Made by a program: the position numbers and the translations under genes. A DNA stretch of 63,001 bases, the filler included, from Porpidia crustulata (lineage: Eukaryota): assembly GCA_964255105.1 (NCBI GenBank). It is 6 parts of 6 records of this genome, joined end to end, with 100 filler letters (N's around TTAATTAATTAA, not from the genome) between each part and the next. Parts side by side here need not be neighbours in the genome. Positions count along the whole stretch, not along the records: positions 1 to 10,441 come from CAXUWE010000774.1; 5 more parts are not named here. One strand, 5' to 3'. Of this stretch, positions 1,181 through 62,766 are shown piece after piece. The notes beneath the pieces were generated by a model that was not told the DNA's origin, did not search any database, and saw nothing but the letters and a program-made list of their open reading frames with translations. How positions within the stretch are numbered: position 1 is the first letter of the stretch; each line of letters begins with the position of its first letter.

Positions 1181-3337
1181 TTAAGCCTGCCATATTTGTA
1201 CGTCCTCACAGTCCCTCGGTGTACGGCATAATTTCCTGGAATCGGCTGGTGCGGTTTTCCAAATTACCTCCCTAACTTCCTTTCCAACTTTTTCTATGGA
1301 GTCCATTGCCCAGATTACGTCTAGATGCTCATACTCTTCGATTATTTTGGAGTGCACGACTCGAACAAAGGGCTCTCGTCCTTTTTCGAAACGTCGTAGT
1401 AATCTTCTGCCATCCACAAGATCATCGGATCCAGCGACCCACAGGGCAAAGGGAGGCACTTTTTCATCGTACCATGCGTGTCGTCCTCGTGAATGCTGGA
1501 CTCCAGCTTTACCAGGAACGTCCTCGGCTGTGCCGTTCCCACAGTAGTCCTCTTTTTCATCCTCTTCATCCTCTTTCTTCAACTCATTCCGTGTAGCAAG
1601 AATACACTTTTGCGACGCAAAGCACTCGCGACCAAGCCACCAACGCATAGCCTCAGCGCTGACGTAGACCGGGGCAAATTGGAACATTCTATCTCTTAGA
1701 CCTCGATCCCAGCGAGCATCCGACCAGTTGAAAAGGAAAGAGAAAACCCGATATCCCATAGCACCGTAAAGCGTCCCAGGTAAGTATGAATGCATAGTCA
1801 TCATGAATGGAATGAAAGCATGTATGCCAAAGAAAACCCGAAACATATTAGGTGATATGATGCGCATAAATTTCAGATACATCTTTCCAATTAAAGGACC
1901 AGCGTAGACTGCAGGCGCCAGCGCACAAAATACGCTAATCTTATCCCCAAGGTCTGGCCTCTGCTCTTTAGCCAAGGCAACAAACGTCTCTGTGGTTCCC
2001 TGGGAGTGACAGACAAGACCCAGCTTTGCAAAGCCAGTCTCCGAGAGAACTCGGGAGATGAGTGCCGGCAAGTCCATAACACCCATTTGACGAATATTCC
2101 AATTCCACATTCGGGGATCGTCGTATGTAAGCATTTGGTGCTCGGGTTTGAAGCCACACCTATTGTTGCCGAGCCAAACATCGTAGCCACTGCCCGCATT
2201 TATTAGCATATGTTCCACAAAGGTTCAACAAGGTAGTCACCTCTTGCACAGGAAGAAAGCTAGACTTTCATCATCATTTGTACAATAAGCGCCAGCGCTT
2301 TGCAACAGACCGTGCACTAGCAGTACTGGATATCTTCGATTGCCATCTACATATTGAGAGCCAGATGCACCGTTTCTCAACCCATTCGAGACCTGTCTTC
2401 TCGGAAAGACTGTGGGCTTTCCAAAACCGCGATGATCCGCCGAGGCAGGTTTATACTCGAGCGGATTGTAAAGATGCCACAGCGCTATGATGAAGCCATC
2501 CTCTGTTTGAACTTTATACTCCTCAACGGCCAAGCCAACCCTTCTCGCATAGTATCCTACATCACACACCAAAGGATCTTTACCACCTTCTGTGGGCACA
2601 TAGCCATCATTCTGACCGGCTTCCTCCTCATCGCGGTCTCCTACGTTGGACACGCTCTTTCTACGCCTTTTCTGGCGCTTCCATGCTTTCGCCTCATACT
2701 TCCTCGCTGCCGTTTTTCTTTTCTCTTCCTCAAAGAAGGGTCGTCGGGCATCTGGGTTCCGCCAGGTCAAGCGAAGCCCAATGTGTTTGAACATGAGGGG
2801 TATGGAGGTGAAAGCTGATCCTAGGACGATGACACCAAGGAAAGAGAGCGAGAGGAAGAATGAGGTAAAACGGAAGCCCCAGCATTGAAGATTTCGAAGT
2901 ATTGAGGGAGGGCCGTATAATGGCAGTTCAGGGAATAAGGGGTTCGTCGATGATGGAGGAATAGCAGTTCTCAATGGTGCTTCTGCTTTGGTGGATTGAG
3001 GGGACCCTGGACATTGTGTGCTGGATTCATCCTTCGTCTGCTGCGACGTATCAAGCTCGGATGTTTCAGCCTTTTCCAAGCAATTTTCCACAGGCGGTTC
3101 GTTCTGATCGAGCACTGCCTTCAGCTTATTGAGTTTGACCGCTTCCTCAAGTGGGATCGCTGGCAGTCGATTGCCATCGCCGGTCTGTATTACCGGATCT
3201 CGAGGTGTGATGAACCGGGCCTCAACAGCGGACGTTGCTACAGCATTAGGATTTTCTGGATCATGGGGAGTAAGGGATAATTTCTCAGCGTGCTGGGTGT
3301 AGTCGATGGCAGGTGTGGCCTTGGATCTTGTGGCCAT
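1181..3337 (-). CDS. AB-hydrolase lipase / steryl-ester hydrolase (Tgl1/Yeh-like), 2 exons
   Basis: Motifs VQTEDGFII, LLVHGLLQS, GYDVWLGNNR, CHSQG nucleophile elbow, YEHLDVIWA; GT-AG intron 2190-2240 joins the ORFs in frame (CKS/GYD). Confidence 0.9.
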
Positions 3338-5342
3338 TGGGGGTGCAGAATCACTGATATTTCCTAATGGATAGTAATATAGGTACAGACAAAGTGGCAG
3401 CTATTTACATTTTCATGTTGACTAATTGTGCGGTCAGCCAAGTAAGCACAGTGCTAAGGCAATGGATATCAGCAAAGAAATGTACTGATGTCGATCAAGC
3501 GTCTGAAAATCCTAATTATTCTATCTATTCTTGTTGATCAATCACAACGCGGCGCGCTAGCTTCAAGCAATGGCATGTGATAATCACGTGCCCTAATCTC
3601 GCTCTCAAAAGTTCCCAGATCGGTCTCATAGTCTCCCTCTCTTGATCCCAGGGACCGACCCTGTGCTTGGAGGGTCATAACTGATGGAACAACAGATATG
3701 GATAGCGCTTGAATTTGAGGTTGCTATCAGGAGGATTGACGACTCCCATAATCCCAATAACAACGGTTCAAAAGCTCGGCGGTATGACCATGAGAGTGTT
3801 GGGGGCCTCTATCAAAGGTCCCTGGGGCTACTCAGGGCCATATAATATGCGACTCCATGAATTATCAGACCCTAGATTACATTTCTTCAATACATATCAT
3901 TATTTACTTAGGTTCTCAATGTCCGGAAGGACGTGAAAGTCATCGCAGTACTTACGCAAAACTCTTTTATCAAAGTGCTGCAACAACTTTTGCGATTCTC
4001 TAATAGTGGATGCTGAGCAGTTAAGACGATGAGTATGAATATGAACAAGCAGGACGTGTAATGAGGGGGTTGGACGAAGAGCAGATATCGTGCTGAATAA
4101 GAAGGGTGAGAAGAATTAGGAGAAAAGTGCGAAGAAGAGCGAATAGACAGGAAATTCTCTTTCATCTACAAATTGTCGCGTACAAGTTTTCGTATAACAC
4201 ACAGCTGTGGTTGTCTCTACTCTCTCGACGCTTTCGGTGTAAAGAGTATGTCATATCATAGCAGAGGCTCTCAGGGCCATCACGGGTCCCCGAAAGTCTT
4301 CGGGGTCCTAGCGACGCTTTGAGATCTGTTCTTAATCTTCTTGAAGATTTGAGGGAACACTGATACACATGAGCAATCTTTTCACGTCTATGATGAAAGG
4401 CTACCGATATCTTAGGTATTTAGCGTATGAAAGCAATGTGAACGTTTGTTCCCAGTTTGTTCCTGCTAGAGTATTCAATTACAATTTTCAGGTTCCAATC
4501 AAGAACGTGGTGGAGCAAGCATTCCTGGCTGCTTGGTCTATGGTGTCAAATTAGATACTAGGCTCGGCATGAAATCTCTTGATGGATTGCTTCGATCGTT
4601 GACTCCACAATGTTGAGCGAACAGATCAGACATATGACACGAAACGTGCTCAGTGATTCATTCAAAATATCAACAAAATGCGCGAACGATGTATTCTCCC
4701 TAGAGCAAATTAAAGTCCTACTAGAATAGGGTTCTACGACAAGTAATAGCGGATTCTTCGAAATGGAGGTAGAGTAAGCTATAAGGTAAGTAGTTTATAA
4801 AGATCTTCACAGACGTGTAGACGCTGTGGACGCACATCTACGTTATTATAGCGCGGTCTCTGTATAAGAAAGATATTTACATCACAGAAAATATCAGAAA
4901 GCCATTAAACTGGTTGAAAAGGAGTGTCTCCTTTGACTGATACAATCACTTTGAATACCCCATGGCGCATGACGGCAGCTTCTAGCATATGATAGTCACG
5001 TGATTGCTGTAATATCATCAGATGTTCTTATAGAGTCAGTCTTCATATATTAGAAGATGGCGAGCTGTCTTTCTCAAAACTTTCTCATTCTGACAGTCTT
5101 CTGGAAATGCTTTTACATGTAATGATTATGGAGTAATTCTTTCACCACTTTCAGTCTTCGGCTGTCCTAGATTCAAGCTTGCCATCCACGCTTCTGATTG
5201 TTATTGCTCATATCATCGAGCTCTGAATTTATAGGGAGGCTTTCGGATTTTCATAAAAATAGACTTCAATTTTGTCATAGCTTCGTAAATCATCAAAGAA
5301 CTCGCAGTCTGAACCTAACATAATTCCCCCGACGTCCCGACT

Positions 5343-6644
5343 CTACGGGGCGTTGTTACTGACGTTAGAGAGGAACACAACAAGCACGGCGGCGTACGCC
5401 GCACTCGCGCCAAGAATCTCATGCCGCTTCGCCCTCGTGAACAACGATAGGATTGCGGAAAACGCAAGAGTGAAGACAAGGAGAATCCCAACGTGGATTG
5501 CCACGGAGGTATTGTTATGGACGCTATTACTGAGTCTGTACAGAATATAGATCGGAATCACGAGCTGCGCAAGGATCATGGTCGTGATGATGAGGGCGAC
5601 GAAGCAGTCAATCCGCGCCCTCGTGTAGTAAACCTCAATCCCATGCGATTTGTTGCGGGTTTCGTTTGAGCAGAATATGTACTGGAGCGAGATAAGTGAT
5701 CCACATCAAGAAAGGAATGACATTTATCTCCCTTACCTCGATAGCCTTGCAATTGATCGCTTTCAATAGTTTCTCCACCCAGGTATCGAGCCAGGCGTGT
5801 TCGCGACCAGCTCGCAGTGTGACCATGTCTTCTTTACGGTATATGTATGAACCTTCGTCTTCAACAAGTGGCTTGTTGTTGTGAATGTAGGTCTCGACGC
5901 TTCGATAGTCGCCATTAGCGGGCTTGTTGAAGGACATCAACTGCTGTGCAGCACAGAGAACCTTGGCTGCCATTGGTTATTATTAGTGTTATTCTATGAG
6001 CCCAGAGTGCCTTCCTGATTACCGTATTCAAGATAACTCAATTCGATCTTTTTCAGCAGTTCCTTTTGAGGCTTGGCCTCTTCTTCAGTAAGATCCCTTG
6101 TCTGCAAGCTTTCAGGATCTTTATGTCTAGCTCTCTGATCCATCCTATCCAGCCTTTCTTCTAGAATCCTCATTTCATCTTGCCTCTCAAGTAGTATACG
6201 AGCTTGTACAAAGCCGAAGCGGCGATAGATCATGAAATTTTCATCGCTGTCGAGGAAGGCCGCAAGATTTGGGTAACCCCTTGGACAGTCTTCTACTGCT
6301 TGCTGTTAGAAAAAGTCCAATGGTAGAGCATTTAAAGCATGCACTCACGGGCCCTTACAAAAGGCCTCCGAGTAGTGAGCGTTGTAGAACGTCGAAAGAA
6401 ATATGCCGTCCCAAGCCATGCCTTCCGAAAGGCTTTTTGAAGCTTCTTATAAGAACCTATCGGCATTTCAGCGATTACAGCATTGTCAACCACACAAACC
6501 AGTATGAGATGCAATACTCCACTTAGCGCGTAGTAAGCTTTGTTTCGTGCTAAAGGAATGACTTGTTTCTGTATGAGACTTCTCGCTTGTGGAGATTCCT
6601 GCTTCGCACTGGTTCATATCAAGGGTGGTACTGGCAACCATCAT
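5343..6644 (-). CDS. DUF6594-family membrane protein, multi-exon; start approximate
   Basis: Spliced reading gives LEDCPRGYPNLAAFLDSDENFMIYRRFGFVQARILLERQDE and C-terminal hydrophobic helices ending AKRHEILGASAAYAAVLVVF; GT-AG introns near 5685-5736, 5970-6023, 6295-6347 and 6459-6501 keep frame. Confidence 0.8.
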
Positions 6645-6863
6645 TTCCACCTTATGTTCTCCTTCAGCAGTCAAAATTGTGACAGATCAGAATTCAATGT
6701 GATAGCGGTACTGGAAAGTCTGAGACCATAATCATGACTTGAGCTGCTCTATTTCAGTACTTCTCCTGTCCAGCCTTGCGTCTTAATTGAAATAAGGCAA
6801 ATCAACCCCACTCGTGCTGTTCACCTTCTATTCGTGCCACTGTTTGCCTCCTATTCGTGTCAC

Positions 6864-7236
6864 CTAGTCACCCTTCGTTTTCTGCAAAGCGGTCTCCGAC
6901 ACCCAAGCGCCATTGTCGTAGGAGTTGCCATTGCTATCATGCAATTTGTACTCCCATCTCCCTTCTGTGCTCTTCTGGCTGTCGACGATGGTCATTTTGA
7001 AATGGCCAGGTTCTGTTGCGATCTTCAACCAGGCTGTACCGTTTTTTTGGAATTTTGCCGTGTACTGCAAACAGTCGATGAGAACTGAGTTCCACGTCTC
7101 ACAGGAGTACTAGCTTACACTTTGCGGGCGTCTAGCCTCGGGAACATACGCCCTGCCGTCAGACGGTTCTCCCGACTATAAAAACTTAGCTTAAAAGGAA
7201 CCGTGAACACAAATAGGCTTGCTTTGCCTCAGCCAT
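6864..7236 (-). CDS. Small (~88 aa) hypothetical beta-rich protein, SH3/Tudor-barrel-like pattern, 3 exons
   Basis: ATG in AAAATGG context; GC-AG intron 7176-7227 and GT-AG intron 7065-7118 give MAE-SGEPSDGRAYVPEARRPQS-YTAKF...WEYKLHDSNGNSYDNGAWVSETAL in frame. Confidence 0.6.
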
Positions 7237-8096
7237 TTTATCAGAGGGCATAATACCATTTGATCGCCAGATATCGAAGTTCCTAAGGCAGGAAAAGCCC
7301 GTAGTCTTTGTTAGACAGCCCTACAGCTTGTCTAAAAATGTGATTCAATTTTTTTGCGAACAATTTTCAAGCAGCACGCACAGAGTGACTTCCGGCACTG
7401 CAAGGCATTCTTCAAGGCTGCGTGGCCTTCATCAGGTCTTATGCAAAGCCACGGCTATGGGAGATCAGGCCCCGCTCAGCCTTTCCTCGCTGGAAGACTT
7501 TATGAGGCTCAATAAAAGCTTGGTGATCCCAGCCTGAGGTTTGAGCCTGAAATTCTGCGGTTTCTTATCTTTCAGCTTTAAGCGGTACCAATGATAGTTC
7601 TGTGTAACTACATTCAGTCCTGAACCGGCGGGGTACTGCCTCTTCCGGCGCATTTCGGCCTGTACTATGATGACTCGATCAGTTGATCCCAAACTCCGCG
7701 ATAAGAAAGTTCTGTAGTATGTAGAAGGCTTACAAGAAATTGATGCAAAAATCTGGCCAATCGATCAAGACCTCCTCGGAAGCCTTACATTGAGGACGTA
7801 GGTCTTGCGGATGAATCGTGTGCTAAGGCGTTACATCCCAACCATACATACATCCATCTAGAGGCAACATGACAGAATCCCATGGCTGCGTACGAAATGG
7901 TTCTTGGTACATCGATTACTGTATAGAGCATGGCCGTCCACGGAGAAGCAGAAATTATATCCAATAGATTTGATCCTTCTAAAAATGGCCCAAATCCGCT
8001 CCCATACGATACGGAGAAGCATTTGGAGGTGGTACCGAATACTCAATTGTTCGTTGCCGTGGTTCGAGAGGCCTCTTCTCCACAAATATTCGCTGG

Positions 8097-9361
8097 TCAA
8101 TCCACTTCACTGCGCAGACTTGAGGAGCCCTGGGATGGTAGTGCTTCGGTCCTGATGTCGGGGATCGCGATAGAAGATAAATCCCCTCTCCGTAGGGTAA
8201 GAAATCTCCATTTGCTCGCGGCAGCTCGAACTAATCGTGTGTGCCTGGTATCCAGTAACGCTACCCGACGAGCCTGCAAGGCATCTTTTCTGATCAAATG
8301 ACTAAATAATTCCGACATCGATCCCACTTCGTCCTCGCTGGGAGTTCTATCCATGAACACCCTCAAGTCAAGGTAGTCATCAACTACCTCTTGTAGTTCT
8401 TCAGAGCCTCTGCTACCGTGAGCGTCAGCTACTGTAGGGCCATTTGTGATTGGCGCAATCACAATATGCTTCAAAGAAGCGCTACCGTCGCGTTCACACA
8501 GAATAGGTACCTGTTCTTTTGGGAATTTTGGGTACTCAATTATTTTCCGTCGCAGCTCGGTAGTAGTAAATCCGCTGGGCTCGACATATAGTCCTTCCAA
8601 TGCCCAGATGAGCGCCGATGTAAATGAGCTGTCTCCTGGGATTGGAGTCGTCGAATTGGCGCTGGTTGCACCCAAGTATTCCGAGCATCGATTAGGCCAA
8701 CGCTTCGGATGATAGCTACGTCCCAGATTTCCCGCATGGCAGCAATCAAAAATAACCAGGACATCAGCTTCAGTATCACTGATGATACCCTCCGCATTAT
8801 GCCAGACAATTTCGGCCTTGTTTGGGCCTTCAACCAGCTTCCCAGGAATTCGCCGTCTGTTAATTCAAATCAGATAGCGATCTTTGAATCAGTGTGGGCT
8901 CTGGATACGCCTTACCCTGCAAGATTTAGGGTGCCAGCTTTCTCTCCGGCAAACCCATGCCCCGCGTAGTAGACAATTAATAGGGTGCGCGGCCCATCCT
9001 CGTGGTACACAAATTCTGCAAGATATTTATGGGCCTGAACTTGAGGCTTCTTCTGAGCGTTGATTTGCGTGCTATATACTTTGAAGTTGTATTTGTCTTG
9101 GAAGACTCGATGAAGTCGTTCTACCTGGAGAATTATCAATTGACGAAACGAACAACGAACAATATAGCATTGGGCTACCTCCTCGCCTGTTTTCAGGTCA
9201 TCCAATTCAGGATCCCACGATATCAAAATCACCGCAGTTCTTTCGTGAGGGGACGTCTTGTCTACATGGACCATGTTCTCGTCCCATATCATCTGTAGGC
9301 GGGCCTGCTTAGACTGTTCAATATCTTGATAGTCGTTTCTGGCCGGCATGGTGTCCGACAT
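8097..9361 (-). CDS. Caspase-like (clan CD, C14-like) cysteine protease, ~383 aa, 3 exons
   Basis: Introns 9125-9178 and 8857-8915; catalytic His in LLIVYYAGHG, catalytic Cys in DVLVIFDCCHAG, downstream SFTSALIWAL helix. Confidence 0.85.
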
Positions 9362-9987
9362 CTTGATACTATCAAGAGTCGATGTCGTACGTATGTCTGA
9401 TATTACAGCAGTCTATAGAGACAAATTATAGGATAGAAGGTCGAGAGCAGTAGACGGGGCTCTTACGAAGGGCCAGCTGTCACTCGGTTTTCAGAGTAGA
9501 ATATATAGATTGAGTGACGCCGAAACAGGCCAACCGTCCTGATTAATCAAAGACCACAAGGCACACTTAGAAATTCGCTGCAGTCCTTTTCAATAAACAA
9601 CATAGCCTCTCTCTTACGAAATTTAGCGTTCCTTAGATACTTGATGGCGGGCCTGAGTAACGAACACTATGGGTAAACGCCAAGCTACACTTTGATGCCT
9701 CTTAACCTCGAAACTTTAATTACCAGCCGGTGCACGATATGAAAGGGGCGCAGTAGGTACGCGCGAAGCGTATCTCATTGGCATGTTGCCGCCTGTTGTC
9801 AGGCAAGTTCGACCAAGTGTCGAAGACCAAAATGGTAAATAGACATCGAGACATTGACTAGAAGCGCGCTTCTCACAAACGTCAGTAGGTAGAGACCTAG
9901 GAGTAAAGAGAGCGACCTAATCAGGCCAAATTGAGGCCATTTAGAGCATTCCTGAAGTCCCCCATTGAGGCCTAGCTGTGACTTTTT

Positions 9988-10441
9988 GGAGTCACAGACT
10001 TCCTCGGTCAAAAGGCTTAGCAGTAATGTCAGCCGAATGGCTTAGCACAGTGATACTTGGAGTTACTGACTCTCCCAGCCAAAAGACTTCGCAATGGGCC
10101 CAGCCAGATGGCTTAGCACATTGATATTTGGAGTTACTGACACCCTCAGCCAAAAGGCTCAGCAGTGATGTCAGCCGAATGGCATAGCACAGTGGTATTT
10201 GGAGTTACTGACTTCCCCAGCCAAAAGACTTACCAGTGGGCTCAGCCAGATGGCTTAGCACAGTATTGTTTGGAGTTACTGACTCCCCCAGCCAACAGGC
10301 TTAGCAGTGGTGTCAGCCGAATGGCTCAGCACAGTGGTATTTGGAGTTACTGACTCCCCCAGCCAACAGGCTTAGCAGTGGTATCAGCCGAATGGCTAAG
10401 CACAGTTGTATTTGGAGTTACTGACAACCCCAGAAAACAGG
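9988..10441. repeat. 71-bp tandem repeat array, >6 units, truncated by contig end
   Basis: GGAGTTACTGA recurs at 10059, 10130, 10201, 10272, 10343, 10414; degenerate copy at 9988. Confidence 0.95.
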
Positions 10442-10541
10442 NNNNNNNNNNNNNNNNNNNNNNNNNNNNNNNNNNNNNNNNNNNNTTAATTAATTAANNN
10501 NNNNNNNNNNNNNNNNNNNNNNNNNNNNNNNNNNNNNNNNN
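10442..10541. other. Artificial contig spacer
   Basis: N44-TTAATTAATTAA-N44; same at five junctions. Confidence 0.99.
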
Positions 10542-10816
10542 ACGCACTGCAGGCGGCGTCATATGGAGGTCATGATCAAGTGGTGCAGATGCTGCTGGAG
10601 AAGGGCGCCGAGATCAACGCTCAAGGTGGTCGATATGGCAACGCACTGCAGGCGGCGTCATTTGGAGGTCACGAGACAGTAGTGCAGATGCTGCTGGAGA
10701 AGGGCGCCGAGGTTAACGCTCAAGGTGGCGACTATGGCAACGCACTGCAGGCGGCGTCAGAAGGAGGTCACGAAACAGTAGTGCAGATGCTGCTGGAGAC
10801 AGGAGCCATTCGCTGA
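10542..10816 (+). CDS. 3' end of an ankyrin-repeat protein, probably a fungal NLR (NACHT-ANK type); 5' part not in contig
   Basis: Near-identical 99-bp repeats starting 10542, 10641, 10740 encoding GNALQAASxGGHETVVQMLLEKGAEVNAQGG; stop ends 10816. Confidence 0.8.
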
Positions 10817-19086: not shown

Positions 19087-20512
19087 TTAGAATCTCAATG
19101 GCTGCCATCGATTTTTACCACGAATTTTTGTACGCTTAATTTCTGGTAGTGAGTTCTTCTCGCTGCTAGCAGAACTGGAAAACACTTCTTCAGCAACAGG
19201 GTGGCCTTTTGGCTTCCCAAACTCTGCCCACAATTTACCCGCCTCAGTCTCAAGGGAATTCTTGGAGCTATAGCTGTTAAGTAGGGGAAAGGGGTTGGCT
19301 TGTGCGCTTCGTTCGGCATTTGGCGAAGTGTCAGGGTCGTCGACGACTGAAAAGCCTGCGATGAGACTGTCAATGTTTGCGGATGACCATAGACCGTCAG
19401 AGACATGCGTCCTCCAGCTCGACATGTGCGGCTCGTTGGCATTTTCAAGAACTGGGAAAGAGCTGAGATCGAGATTATCTGGCTGTTCCTGATCTCCACT
19501 AGATACTCGCACGCTCTGATAGCTGCTGAAGAAGCGTTCAGTGTTGATATAATTCATTAGACTAGGTCTATCGCGTTCCGTTTCACTCATCTCTAAAAGT
19601 GAGGGCAGCATCCAGGTCCGGCCAATTTGTAGAGAATGGGGCTTATGTTTAGAAGTATTGTGGAGAGAGCCACCATCATAGTCGGAGAAGAGCGCTCTGA
19701 CTCGAACATATGGATGATTTGCTCCATATTCACGGGCTGAGATTGGCCTTTCCCCGACAGACAGCGGCCGGCTTTCGAGGCTTTGATTTGCTCCAAATTC
19801 GAGCAACACCCTCGCTGTTTCGAAGATCTCGTCAGGACTAGGATTAAGATAACAGTATGATTCTAAAGGCGAAGGGCCTTGCAGCAGCGCATGATGAAGG
19901 GGCGTCATTGCACTCTCGTCTGTATTATCAACGTCTGTACCCTCATTGAGAAAATACCGCGCACAACCCCAAAGTCCTAGGCGACATGACACATGTAAGG
20001 GAGTCAATCTTCTCGTTGAATCCACCAAGCAATTTTGTAGATTGCTAATACGTCTGGAAATGGTACGAGTAACCTTTTCGTGCCTTGCAATAAGTGCGAA
20101 AAAGAGGGGTGTCAAGCTCTCTTGAACTCTGGCCTCAGGATCGGCTCCGACTCCAAGCAACAGTTTCACCATGGCAAGATGGCCCTTCTTAGCCGCCAAA
20201 TGAAGAGGCGTCAAGCCAGCTCGTGGCCCACTTCCATTGCTTCTGGCCTCCTGTACTTTGACATTAACGTCTGCTCCTAGGTGAAGCATTTTGCGCGCTG
20301 TTGATTCACGACCATGCTCCGCAGCCCAGAATAGAGCACTGCATCTCCGATGTTTTTATGTTATAGCAATACAAGTAGTCGTCGAGAAGATTGTAAAATC
20401 GCCTACTGACGTGGATCAAAGAATAAATGTCTTGCTCCTTGTTCAAGTTTTCAACGACCTCCATTATAATCTCATTGGGAAGACTAAAGAATGTCATTGT
20501 CGACAAAGACAA
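19087..20512 (-). pseudogene. F-box + ankyrin-repeat gene with a single-base frameshift
   Basis: F-box FFSLPNEIIMEVVENL; removing one base from the run at 20353-20357 gives NIKHRRCSALFWAAEHG, fused to the ANK ORF (TPLHLAAKKGH). Confidence 0.75.
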
Positions 20513-61507: not shown

Positions 61508-62196
61508 CTACAACAGTTTTTTCGCGCTCAACTTTTCAACAATGTCGTCCTGGAACAATCTTGTAAAATCGGGTTCCCCCGTCTGTCCCTTGAAAGTATC
61601 GTTCAGGCACGCCATGACAGCTTCCGAATACGAGGTCCCCATGTGATACGGCACGCTTTTCTGCGCGATACCCTCGAGATGTTCTTGCACCGCAAACCTG
61701 TCGATACCGGCACCGTCAACGCAGAGCCCTGCCGCTGCCCTCTCGAAGTGATCTTTGGCAGTCGTCCACGTTGCGATCTCGAGTAAGACCACCCCCAGCG
61801 CATAAAGATCGTGGAGCTTGGTGAAGGTCATCCGTGGCCGGCCCGGATGAAGATACAAGGTCATGGAATCAGTGGCCTTGTTGTAGTGCTCAAACGTCCT
61901 GCCGCCTACTGGACGGGAGTACTCGAAATCGACCAGGTAAGGCGAGTCGAGCATCCAAGCTTTGGTATTCCGATTCCGGAAGAATACAATGGACTGACTG
62001 CAAACGCTTTTGTGAACCCATTGATCGGCATGGAAGACCCCAATGCTTTGCGCGATCACTTGTGCGACGTGGAAGCGGGATTTGAGAGGGAATCGGGATT
62101 CCGAGGCAGTAAATTTGATAAGTTGATGTAAAGAGATTGGTTGAGAATGTTCGGCGTGGAGTGGAAACCTGTAAATGAATGCATATCTTGGTCTGA
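61508..62196 (-). pseudogene. Kinase-like C-lobe fragment of the fungal HeLo-associated type; N-terminal part absent
   Basis: FHADQWVHKSVCSQSIVFF, PYLVDFEYSRP, LYLHP, HDLYALGVVLLEIATW; preceded by a splice acceptor and low-complexity DNA. Confidence 0.6.
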
Positions 62197-62766
62197 TCTG
62201 ATGGATTAACGTGACCGTAAAATGGCAGCATTCGGAAGGGAGGGAAACTGAACTCGCATTCGAAAGAGGTGGGGGAGACGGGAAATAGAAGGAAAATAGA
62301 GGCGGAAGAGAGAGGAGGAAAAGAAAGAAATGAAATGAAAATGAGAAAAGGAAGAGGGGGAAAAAAGAAACGAAAAGAAAAGAAAAGGAGGAAAACAAAG
62401 CCAGAAGTAGTGAAATGATTATATATATATCAAAAACATGTAAATGAAATCTCACCGCGGCATCTATCCAACCCAACCATTCTAAAAAACCGACTCGCCC
62501 ACCCGGCAGTTCAGATCTACACGCCCACACATCAACCAATAGACATTTTAGAACAAAAGCCCTCGTATCGTAAACCTTTCGTCATTGTCACGACCCTGTC
62601 TATAATGCCGGATTGTGCCTACATGACACGTGCAGCCTATGTCTTCAATCCCTCCTTACTCCCCCTCAACCTCGTAATTGCCTAAACGCCATCACCTTCC
62701 AACTCCCATTCCTCAATACTAATTCCCATTCATATACCTCCCCCCCCCGATCCACCCAATCCAAAA

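Follow-up and report, generated by a model that had tools for sequence, protein, structure and literature searches.

Do three adjacent genes of Porpidia crustulata, encoding a caspase-like protease, a small β-barrel protein and a membrane protein of the DUF6594 family, belong to one functional unit, and if so, what might the protease act on? The genes lie on the minus strand at positions 5343–9361 of a 63,001-nucleotide stretch from assembly GCA_964255105.1, which we call the window; all coordinates are positions of this whole stretch. We refer to the C14 protease gene as P, to the small barrel gene as S and to the DUF6594 gene as D, and we designate metagenome loci as L### and database proteins as P####. 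A first-pass annotation had described three co-oriented, spliced, frame-intact genes over this interval, and our gene models have the same ends, the ATG of P on one side and the stop codon of D on the other. From their distribution in other fungi we find that P, S and D form a genuine module of filamentous ascomycetes, one that has apparently not been described before, and we propose, more tentatively, that P controls a membrane complex of S and D by proteolysis.

Co-location of P, S and D in other fungi

We asked whether D and S recur beside P outside the window. Metagenomes were scanned with an alignment of P relatives, which gave 231 matching stretches, 128 of them encoding a P relative. 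From these we retained the 80 best loci, which fell into 51 clusters at P identities of at least 90%, and only clusters with enough flanking sequence were counted. With the window exons as tblastn queries, 36–40 loci gave matches to D exons and 18 to S; for S, an iterated profile increased the number to 36 open reading frames (ORFs), the window included. Among the 20 clusters with flanks of at least 2.5 kb on both sides, D was present in 19 and S in 18, both genes together in 18, within ∼2.6 kb. Longer flanks of at least 5 kb (16 clusters) gave D in 15, S in 14 and both in 14, and flanks of at least 1 kb (26 clusters) gave D in 21, S in 19 and both in 19. D-like genes were ∼38-fold denser close to P, with 20 in the 119,831 bp up to 3 kb from it versus one in the 230,695 bp further out. 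An all-against-all comparison of the ORFs from 20 long loci and the window revealed no fourth recurrent family, the other recurrent clusters being antisense shadows of P and D. The protein database holds three more P/D pairs on contigs equal in size (P0040/P0086 from Viridothelium virens, P0055/P0081 and P0064/P0103), and named homologues of P, S and D come from Dothideomycetes, Eurotiomycetes, Leotiomycetes and Lecanoromycetes. Recurrent co-location, on which the first-pass annotation had staked its proposal beforehand, was thus observed. As D stands beside P in 19 of 20 clusters and the complete trio in 18 of 20, through at least four gene orders, a functional cassette is well supported, and we consider it very probable that the three genes are a functional module.

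The order of the genes varies around one constant element. Four arrangements were seen: P>S>D>, S>D>P>, D<S<P> and P>D<S<. The first is that of the window and of L001, L007, L011, L015, L038 and L063, while S>D>P> and D<S<P> each occur in two separate clades of the P tree. In all 20 clusters with S, this gene is the immediate 5′ neighbour of D in the same orientation, and 489–1159 nt separate the S stop from the D core motif (in the window, the S stop is ∼220 nt from the D ATG). Because S is always directly 5′ of D, it is P that moves around a fixed S-to-D unit. We then compared the pairwise divergences of the three proteins, which mirrored each other closely (Mantel/Pearson r of 0.80 for P-D, 0.81 for P-S and 0.75 for D-S, each reached by 0 of 5000 permutations), indicating long co-inheritance down to ∼30% P identity. 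In L032/L035, a second DUF6594-like gene (3135–4822, plus strand) is found ∼4.7 kb upstream of P, just ahead of the module's own S, and possibly arose by tandem duplication of D.

The exons of the window were also compared with those of L001 and L007. In all exons compared, dN was 0.12–0.32 with synonymous sites saturated, and dN/dS, where defined, was ∼0.09–0.21, indicating that P, S and D are real coding genes under purifying selection.

The encoded proteins and their gene models

The first-pass annotation had read the products as a clan CD protease with intact His (YYAGHG) and Cys (DCC) and no Pro/Gln-rich prodomain, a β-rich protein of ∼88 aa, and a protein with a low-complexity leader, a helical core and C-terminal transmembrane helices. 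These descriptions all held up, the last with the help of a structural model that is itself poor (see below).

P has 383 aa in three exons. On exon 2 of the window alone, the match to Peptidase_C14 (Pfam PF00656) was sub-threshold (E 0.0028, 17.8 bits versus a cut-off of 21.4), while the four full-length relatives tested were all above the cut-off (30.6, 31.6, 25.3 and 25.0 bits), though the matches remain weak. Both YYAGHG and DCCHAG are present in the window; the catalytic His is kept in 45 of the 46 clusters that cover it and Cys-Cys in 51 of 51. An Asp two residues ahead of the catalytic Cys is almost invariant in the alignment, a position that presumably lines the S1 pocket of Arg/Lys-specific metacaspases. 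The N-terminus comprises ∼40 residues with neither a Pro/Gln-rich nor an LSD1-zinc-finger prodomain, which sets P apart from type I metacaspases. In the relatives (∼380–470 aa) a Pfam search found no sensor or repeat domain, and a sequence search of the PDB with the P profile returned chance matches only. Judged by its sequence, P is therefore a metacaspase-like C14 cysteine protease that keeps its catalytic residues and has no prodomain or sensor domain. Many relatives carry hydrophobic C-terminal helices or transmembrane segments, and this tail is likely to hold the protease at the membrane.

The copy in the window differs in exactly this region. Its close relatives P0001–P0005 (65–69% identical) run ∼75 residues beyond the window stop into a hydrophobic C-terminal helix (e.g. 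..IRYHFQMLLLAILGKLWAILL..), and in more distant relatives the C-terminus consists of two or three transmembrane segments. Compared to these, the window has a 1-base deletion at ∼8134/8133 and, in the homologous frame, TGA at 8109–8107 where the relatives have AGA. P in the window is thus without its last ∼75 residues, the hydrophobic tail included, and retains the catalytic domain. We considered a sequencing error as the cause of the frameshift and rejected it: there are two independent lesions, and an independently assembled Logan contig is identical over 5300–9400. This contig comes from the sole run with the locus, which is probably the source sample. The truncation is therefore read as real, and the P of the window would be soluble, or the copy is decaying. 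The description of the genes as frame-intact therefore needs a caveat at the tail of P.

S has 88 aa in three exons, the last of which encodes 66 aa, is 76% identical to relatives and gave an AlphaFold2 (AF2) model with a pLDDT of 83.4. The two short upstream exons are kept in frame in L001/L003/L007; since the first intron requires a GC-AG donor, confidence in the gene model is lowest for exon 1. An alternative first exon from ATG 7146 (MFPRLDARK) was rejected because it does not use the conserved reading frame of exon 2. The best structural matches of the barrel were chromo-barrel, Tudor and PWWP domains (Foldseek E 4e-3 at best, TM 0.6–0.7). Against the MRG15 chromo barrel (2f5k), 62 of 66 residues aligned with an rmsd of 2.3 and a Z of 7.9; scores of Z <8 are common among unrelated small barrels, so that the comparison supports only a small SH3-like barrel. 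S belongs to no Pfam family (no match at E ≤0.001 for any of 23 members), and the alignment of its family shows conserved W, F and Y positions.

How widespread is this barrel? A word-based search found one protein, whereas the number rose to 303 cluster representatives at E ≤0.001 (48 at ≤1e-10) in an exhaustive profile search, most of them 40–130 aa long with the barrel at the C-terminus. Among P0114, P0120, P0181 and P0109, S-type barrels end larger proteins, namely a KH-domain protein, a DUF6590 + DEK_C protein (three copies) and a TPR + protein kinase protein (Phaeosphaeria sp.), and one protein is a four-copy tandem of the barrel; its presence in KH, DUF6590/DEK_C and TPR-kinase proteins suggests a general interaction domain. 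In P0106 (Scytalidium lignicola), annotated as a DUF6594 protein, residues ∼45–100 resemble the S barrel (..KYRVNDQVWLRGSTREDGVFPMKV..), so this entry either represents a true fusion or was annotated by merging the S and D genes of the tandem. It hinted that S could be a mere N-terminal exon of D. We rejected this because a stop follows within a few codons of the barrel in 36 ORFs, the window included, and because separate 87–93-aa proteins are annotated in named fungi. Co-transcription of S and D is possible.

D has 363 aa in five exons, the first intron (43 nt) being unusually short. It matches the entire DUF6594 profile (PF20237), three exons together covering positions 1–238, and its homologues P0080 and P0086 score 206–208 bits against the same profile. 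The AF2 model of P0086 is poor (mean pLDDT 59.8, pTM 0.37); it is all-helical, with a predicted disordered leader, a coiled-coil hairpin and three long C-terminal helices. No Foldseek match to this model was obtained at E ≤0.001 and no solved structure was similar, and the only usable results of Atlas searches were DUF6594 itself and generic small barrels. There was no match of D to a gasdermin family, and the PF20237 assignment and the predicted all-helical architecture place it outside the gasdermin fold. The leader is variable, basic and of low complexity, and the core behind it is sharply conserved. The exons of all three genes are listed in Table 1.

Table 1. Exons and other features of the P, S and D genes in the window
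Feature	Position	Strand	Remarks
P exon 1	9179..9361	-	ATG at 9361, 61 codons; GT..AG intron 9178-9125; 62-77% identical in nine loci (L001-L009)
P exon 2	8916..9124	-	Catalytic His (YYAGHG); Peptidase_C14 match
P exon 3	8097..8856	-	Catalytic Cys (DCCHAG); conserved blocks PG..SFTSALIWALE and YLDLR; stop 8097-8099
Degenerate P C-terminal tail remnant	7858..8133	-	Out of frame; other frame still encodes ..IRYHLQMLLRIVWERIWAIF..
S exon 1	7228..7236	-	ATGGCTGAG, conserved in window, L001, L003, L007; inferred GC donor, uncertain
S exon 2	7119..7175	-	Disordered leader SGEPSDGRAYVPEARRPQS; motif D-G-R-A-Y-V at 7143-7160
S exon 3	6864..7064	-	66-aa predicted β-barrel domain; stop 6864-6866
D exon 1	6500..6644	-	Low-complexity leader, ATG 6644 (alternative start ATG 6466); 51-58% identical to L001-L005 (E 2e-11 to 7e-11)
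D exon 2	6359..6456	-	Basic part of leader (..FFRRSTTLTTRRPF)
D exon 3	6023..6302	-	Conserved N-terminal motif GYPNLAAFLDSDENFMIYRRF and coiled-coil hairpin; PF20237 positions 1-86, E 1.7e-19; invariant columns
D exon 4	5737..5966	-	Helical middle region (..KEDMVTLRAGREHAWLD..); PF20237 positions 88-155, E 2.3e-10
D exon 5	5343..5681	-	Three hydrophobic helices, conserved AKRHE loop; stop 5343-5345; PF20237 positions 154-238, E 8.6e-22

In the surroundings of the module, a lipase-like gene (Abhydro_lipase, 1184–3400, minus strand) lies downstream of D; synteny of this gene is limited to the closest relatives, L001 and L007. On the other side, a tandem array (9985–10433; 71-bp unit, 6.3 copies, 82% matches) runs into an N gap at the contig end, and the Logan contig with the module also ends near 10.2 kb. 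At 10443–10541, two N runs flank the linker TTAATTAATTAA, which looks like an artificial join between contigs; sequence to the right of ∼10.5 kb therefore need not physically adjoin the module. Ankyrin-repeat coding sequence occurs at 10542–10816 (plus strand), starting right after the gap with 99-bp units that are 91% alike, and at 19090–20355 (minus strand); in the ORF comparison of the 20 long loci and the window it showed no link to the module. Further along, the region from 26 to 62 kb contains housekeeping genes (Kae1/TsaD, AMPK beta subunit, lunapark, FGGY kinase, EPL1 and a bZIP factor), and a DUF7580 ORF is located at 61511–62581.

A possible proteolytic switch and its alternatives

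What could P act on? We know of no substrates of fungal metacaspase-like proteases outside the Mca1 type, and we looked for candidate sites in the leaders of the partner proteins. Apart from a single short motif, D-x-R-[A/S]-x-[Y/V], the S leader is variable; the motif reads DGRAYV in the window and L001 and occurs elsewhere as DGRAFV, DYRAYV, DRAFV, DDRSNY, EDRSHY, PEDRSAF or PEFRSFY. Counted as the pattern [DE]-x(0-1)-R-[AST]-x-[YFHWV], it was present in 13 of 49 database S leaders compared to 0.9 on average, and never more than 4, in 1000 shuffles; these 49 proteins were selected by a Met start and a leader of at least 15 aa and include some ORF calls that are not true leaders. At the loci, the pattern lay ≤260 nt upstream of the S barrel exon in 12 of 22 cases versus 4 of 22 when the reverse complement served as control. 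Metacaspases specific for Arg would be expected to cut after an Arg that precedes a small residue, and it is plausible that the motif is an arginine cleavage site for P.

We propose that a limited cut by P in the S-D unit would switch a membrane complex, and we give this reading as a whole a probability of about 0.4. P, held at the membrane by its hydrophobic tail in many relatives, would cut after an arginine, most likely in the S-leader motif and possibly also in the basic, low-complexity leader of D. D would have a cytosolic coiled-coil domain and three C-terminal membrane helices and, encoded in fixed tandem with S, would form with it a latent membrane complex that the cut turns active. 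The output could be membrane permeabilisation and cell death, or signalling or a stress response. That P acts proteolytically on S and/or D in the first place has, in our estimate, slightly less than an even chance. As the target of P, S is indicated at least as strongly as D, both by its fixed tandem with D and by the conserved Arg motif of its leader. Regulated cell death as the output of the module appears rather unlikely. The most specific form of the proposal, in which a membrane-anchored, Arg-specific P cuts the S leader and thereby releases or activates the three-helix DUF6594 protein, making it a new protease-gated membrane executioner, seems unlikely to us.

Several observations weigh against the proposed switch. 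The P of the window is itself truncated. L064, a locus with long flanks and a divergent P paralogue (LDCCWSG), has neither D nor S, and in L074, which also has long flanks, D is present and S was not detected. In 10 of 22 loci, among them the S>D>P> clade of L023/L032/L036/L046, the Arg motif is absent or deviates, and being short it could be a docking motif instead of a cut site. The putative Arg/Lys specificity of P draws on the S1-pocket feature that we assume for the conserved Asp. Plain co-inheritance would likewise produce matched divergences of P, S and D, which by themselves do not demonstrate co-evolution. Finally, DUF6594 is a large family, and most of its members may work without a protease.

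Even so, the consequences of the proposed switch would be considerable. If P does control D by proteolysis, fungal protease-controlled membrane effectors would extend beyond gasdermins, and the trio would be a new case of caspase-family control of membrane proteins in eukaryotic microbes. If the executioner form were true, it would give the large DUF6594 family its first function and would add to fungal regulated cell death a class of effectors that are neither gasdermin nor HeLo and stand under a true C14 protease. In addition, the tight conservation of the trio gives each protein specific candidate partners and singles out one residue, the Arg of the S leader, so that three 'hypothetical proteins' become a directly testable system.

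The first-pass annotation had offered a different model, a cell-death or nonself module in which P cleaves D, for instance by removing its leader, and so makes it a membrane-damaging executioner, with S as adaptor or inhibitor. We regard this model, which leans on analogy, as doubtful. The conserved clustering of a protease with a membrane protein does resemble the fungal gasdermin clusters with S8 or CHAT proteases, as far as the available text of PMC8851545 and PMC12881547 describes them. A variable, basic leader ahead of a sharply conserved core fits removal of the D leader as well. Diverged copies of the module share a contig-name prefix (L005/L028, L006/L029 and L002/L077), which would fit an expanded accessory system, but these are metagenomes and the organisms may differ. 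Other features agree poorly with the analogy. P has no repeat or NOD sensor domain, whereas 93% of the gasdermin-linked, HET-Q2-like proteases have long extra termini according to the available text of PMC8851545, and D is predicted to be all-helical with built-in membrane helices, unlike a gasdermin-like latent pore former. Moreover, no conserved cut-site motif was apparent on inspection of the D leaders.

Could the module instead serve a purpose that is not lethal? P, S and D might form or service a complex for stress signalling or for membrane or organelle homeostasis, with P as a maturation peptidase or a scaffold. The strong purifying selection on all three genes, their retention across at least four classes of Pezizomycotina (by the organism names of database homologues), the lack of a sensor domain on P and the occurrence of the S-type barrel at the C-terminus of KH-domain, DUF6590/DEK_C and TPR-kinase proteins are all consistent with such a role. 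On the other hand, the strong divergence of the sequences and the differing gene orders fit an accessory system better than a core housekeeping one, and no function can be named for the complex. A pure scaffold role for P is unlikely because the catalytic dyad is almost perfectly conserved. Overall, a non-lethal complex of this kind seems improbable. It is very unlikely that S and D merely share a transcript or promoter with P co-regulated and the products without mutual action: the short distance from S to D, most of which in the 20 clusters is D leader, and the S-like N-terminus merged with D in P0106 would agree with it, but it fails to explain why P stays adjacent through four orders and orientations while all other neighbours are lost, or why the divergences of P, S and D match.

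Comparison with known systems

Finally, we asked how the module relates to systems that have been described. D matches the whole profile of a family that carries no function, in agreement with the first-pass annotation, which knew of none: we found no paper naming DUF6594 or PF20237, and none describing the trio in broader searches, supplementary tables lying outside these searches. As far as the searches show, a DUF6594 gene with a fixed upstream S gene and a linked protease has not been described. S resembles the Tudor, chromo-barrel and PWWP barrels in its predicted fold, which aligns with MRG15 over nearly its full length, but it has no match to their sequence families, and the similarity may reflect only the common SH3-like arrangement.

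Type I metacaspases (yeast Mca1/Yca1, Podospora PaMCA1/2) have a YxGHG + DxCH(S/A)G dyad with an acidic residue two positions before the Cys. P shares the order of His and Cys, the acidic residue and similar blocks downstream of the Cys. It differs in having no Pro/Gln-rich or zinc-finger prodomain and in a C-terminal region of its own (YLDLRF block), often with a hydrophobic tail, and its relatives match the Pfam C14 model at only 25–32 bits. With respect to the possible substrate, plant metacaspase 4, as Hander et al. reportedly found in 2019, cuts PROPEP1 after a conserved Arg and so releases the danger peptide Pep1. The S leader is similar in that a small precursor carries a conserved Arg followed by a small residue (A or S). 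In the plant system, by contrast, the genes are unclustered, there is no membrane partner and the product is a secreted peptide, while the conserved part of S is a folded barrel and not a peptide.

The closest parallel is provided by the fungal gasdermin clusters, such as HET-Q1/HET-Q2 of Podospora anserina and TPR-CHAT Q2L-6 with gasdermin Q1-6. In the available text of PMC8851545, most fungal gasdermin homologues lie near S8 proteases and 19% near CHAT proteases. As described there, a protease gene is kept beside the gene of a membrane-acting protein in many fungi, the partners include caspase-related proteases of clan CD, and the effector and protease trees are associated over long evolutionary times; the module shares all three features. 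The available text of a 2025 review (PMC12881547) mentions CHAT and has 0 occurrences of 'metacaspase' and 'C14'. The protease of the module is neither S8 nor CHAT but of the Peptidase_C14, metacaspase-like type, and it lacks a sensor or repeat extension; its partner is a DUF6594 protein, predicted to be all-helical with three membrane helices; and a third gene, S, is obligatory. Thus, the P-S-D trio shares the logic of a clustered protease with these systems and differs from them in the protease family, in an unrelated membrane partner and in an extra, obligatory small protein.

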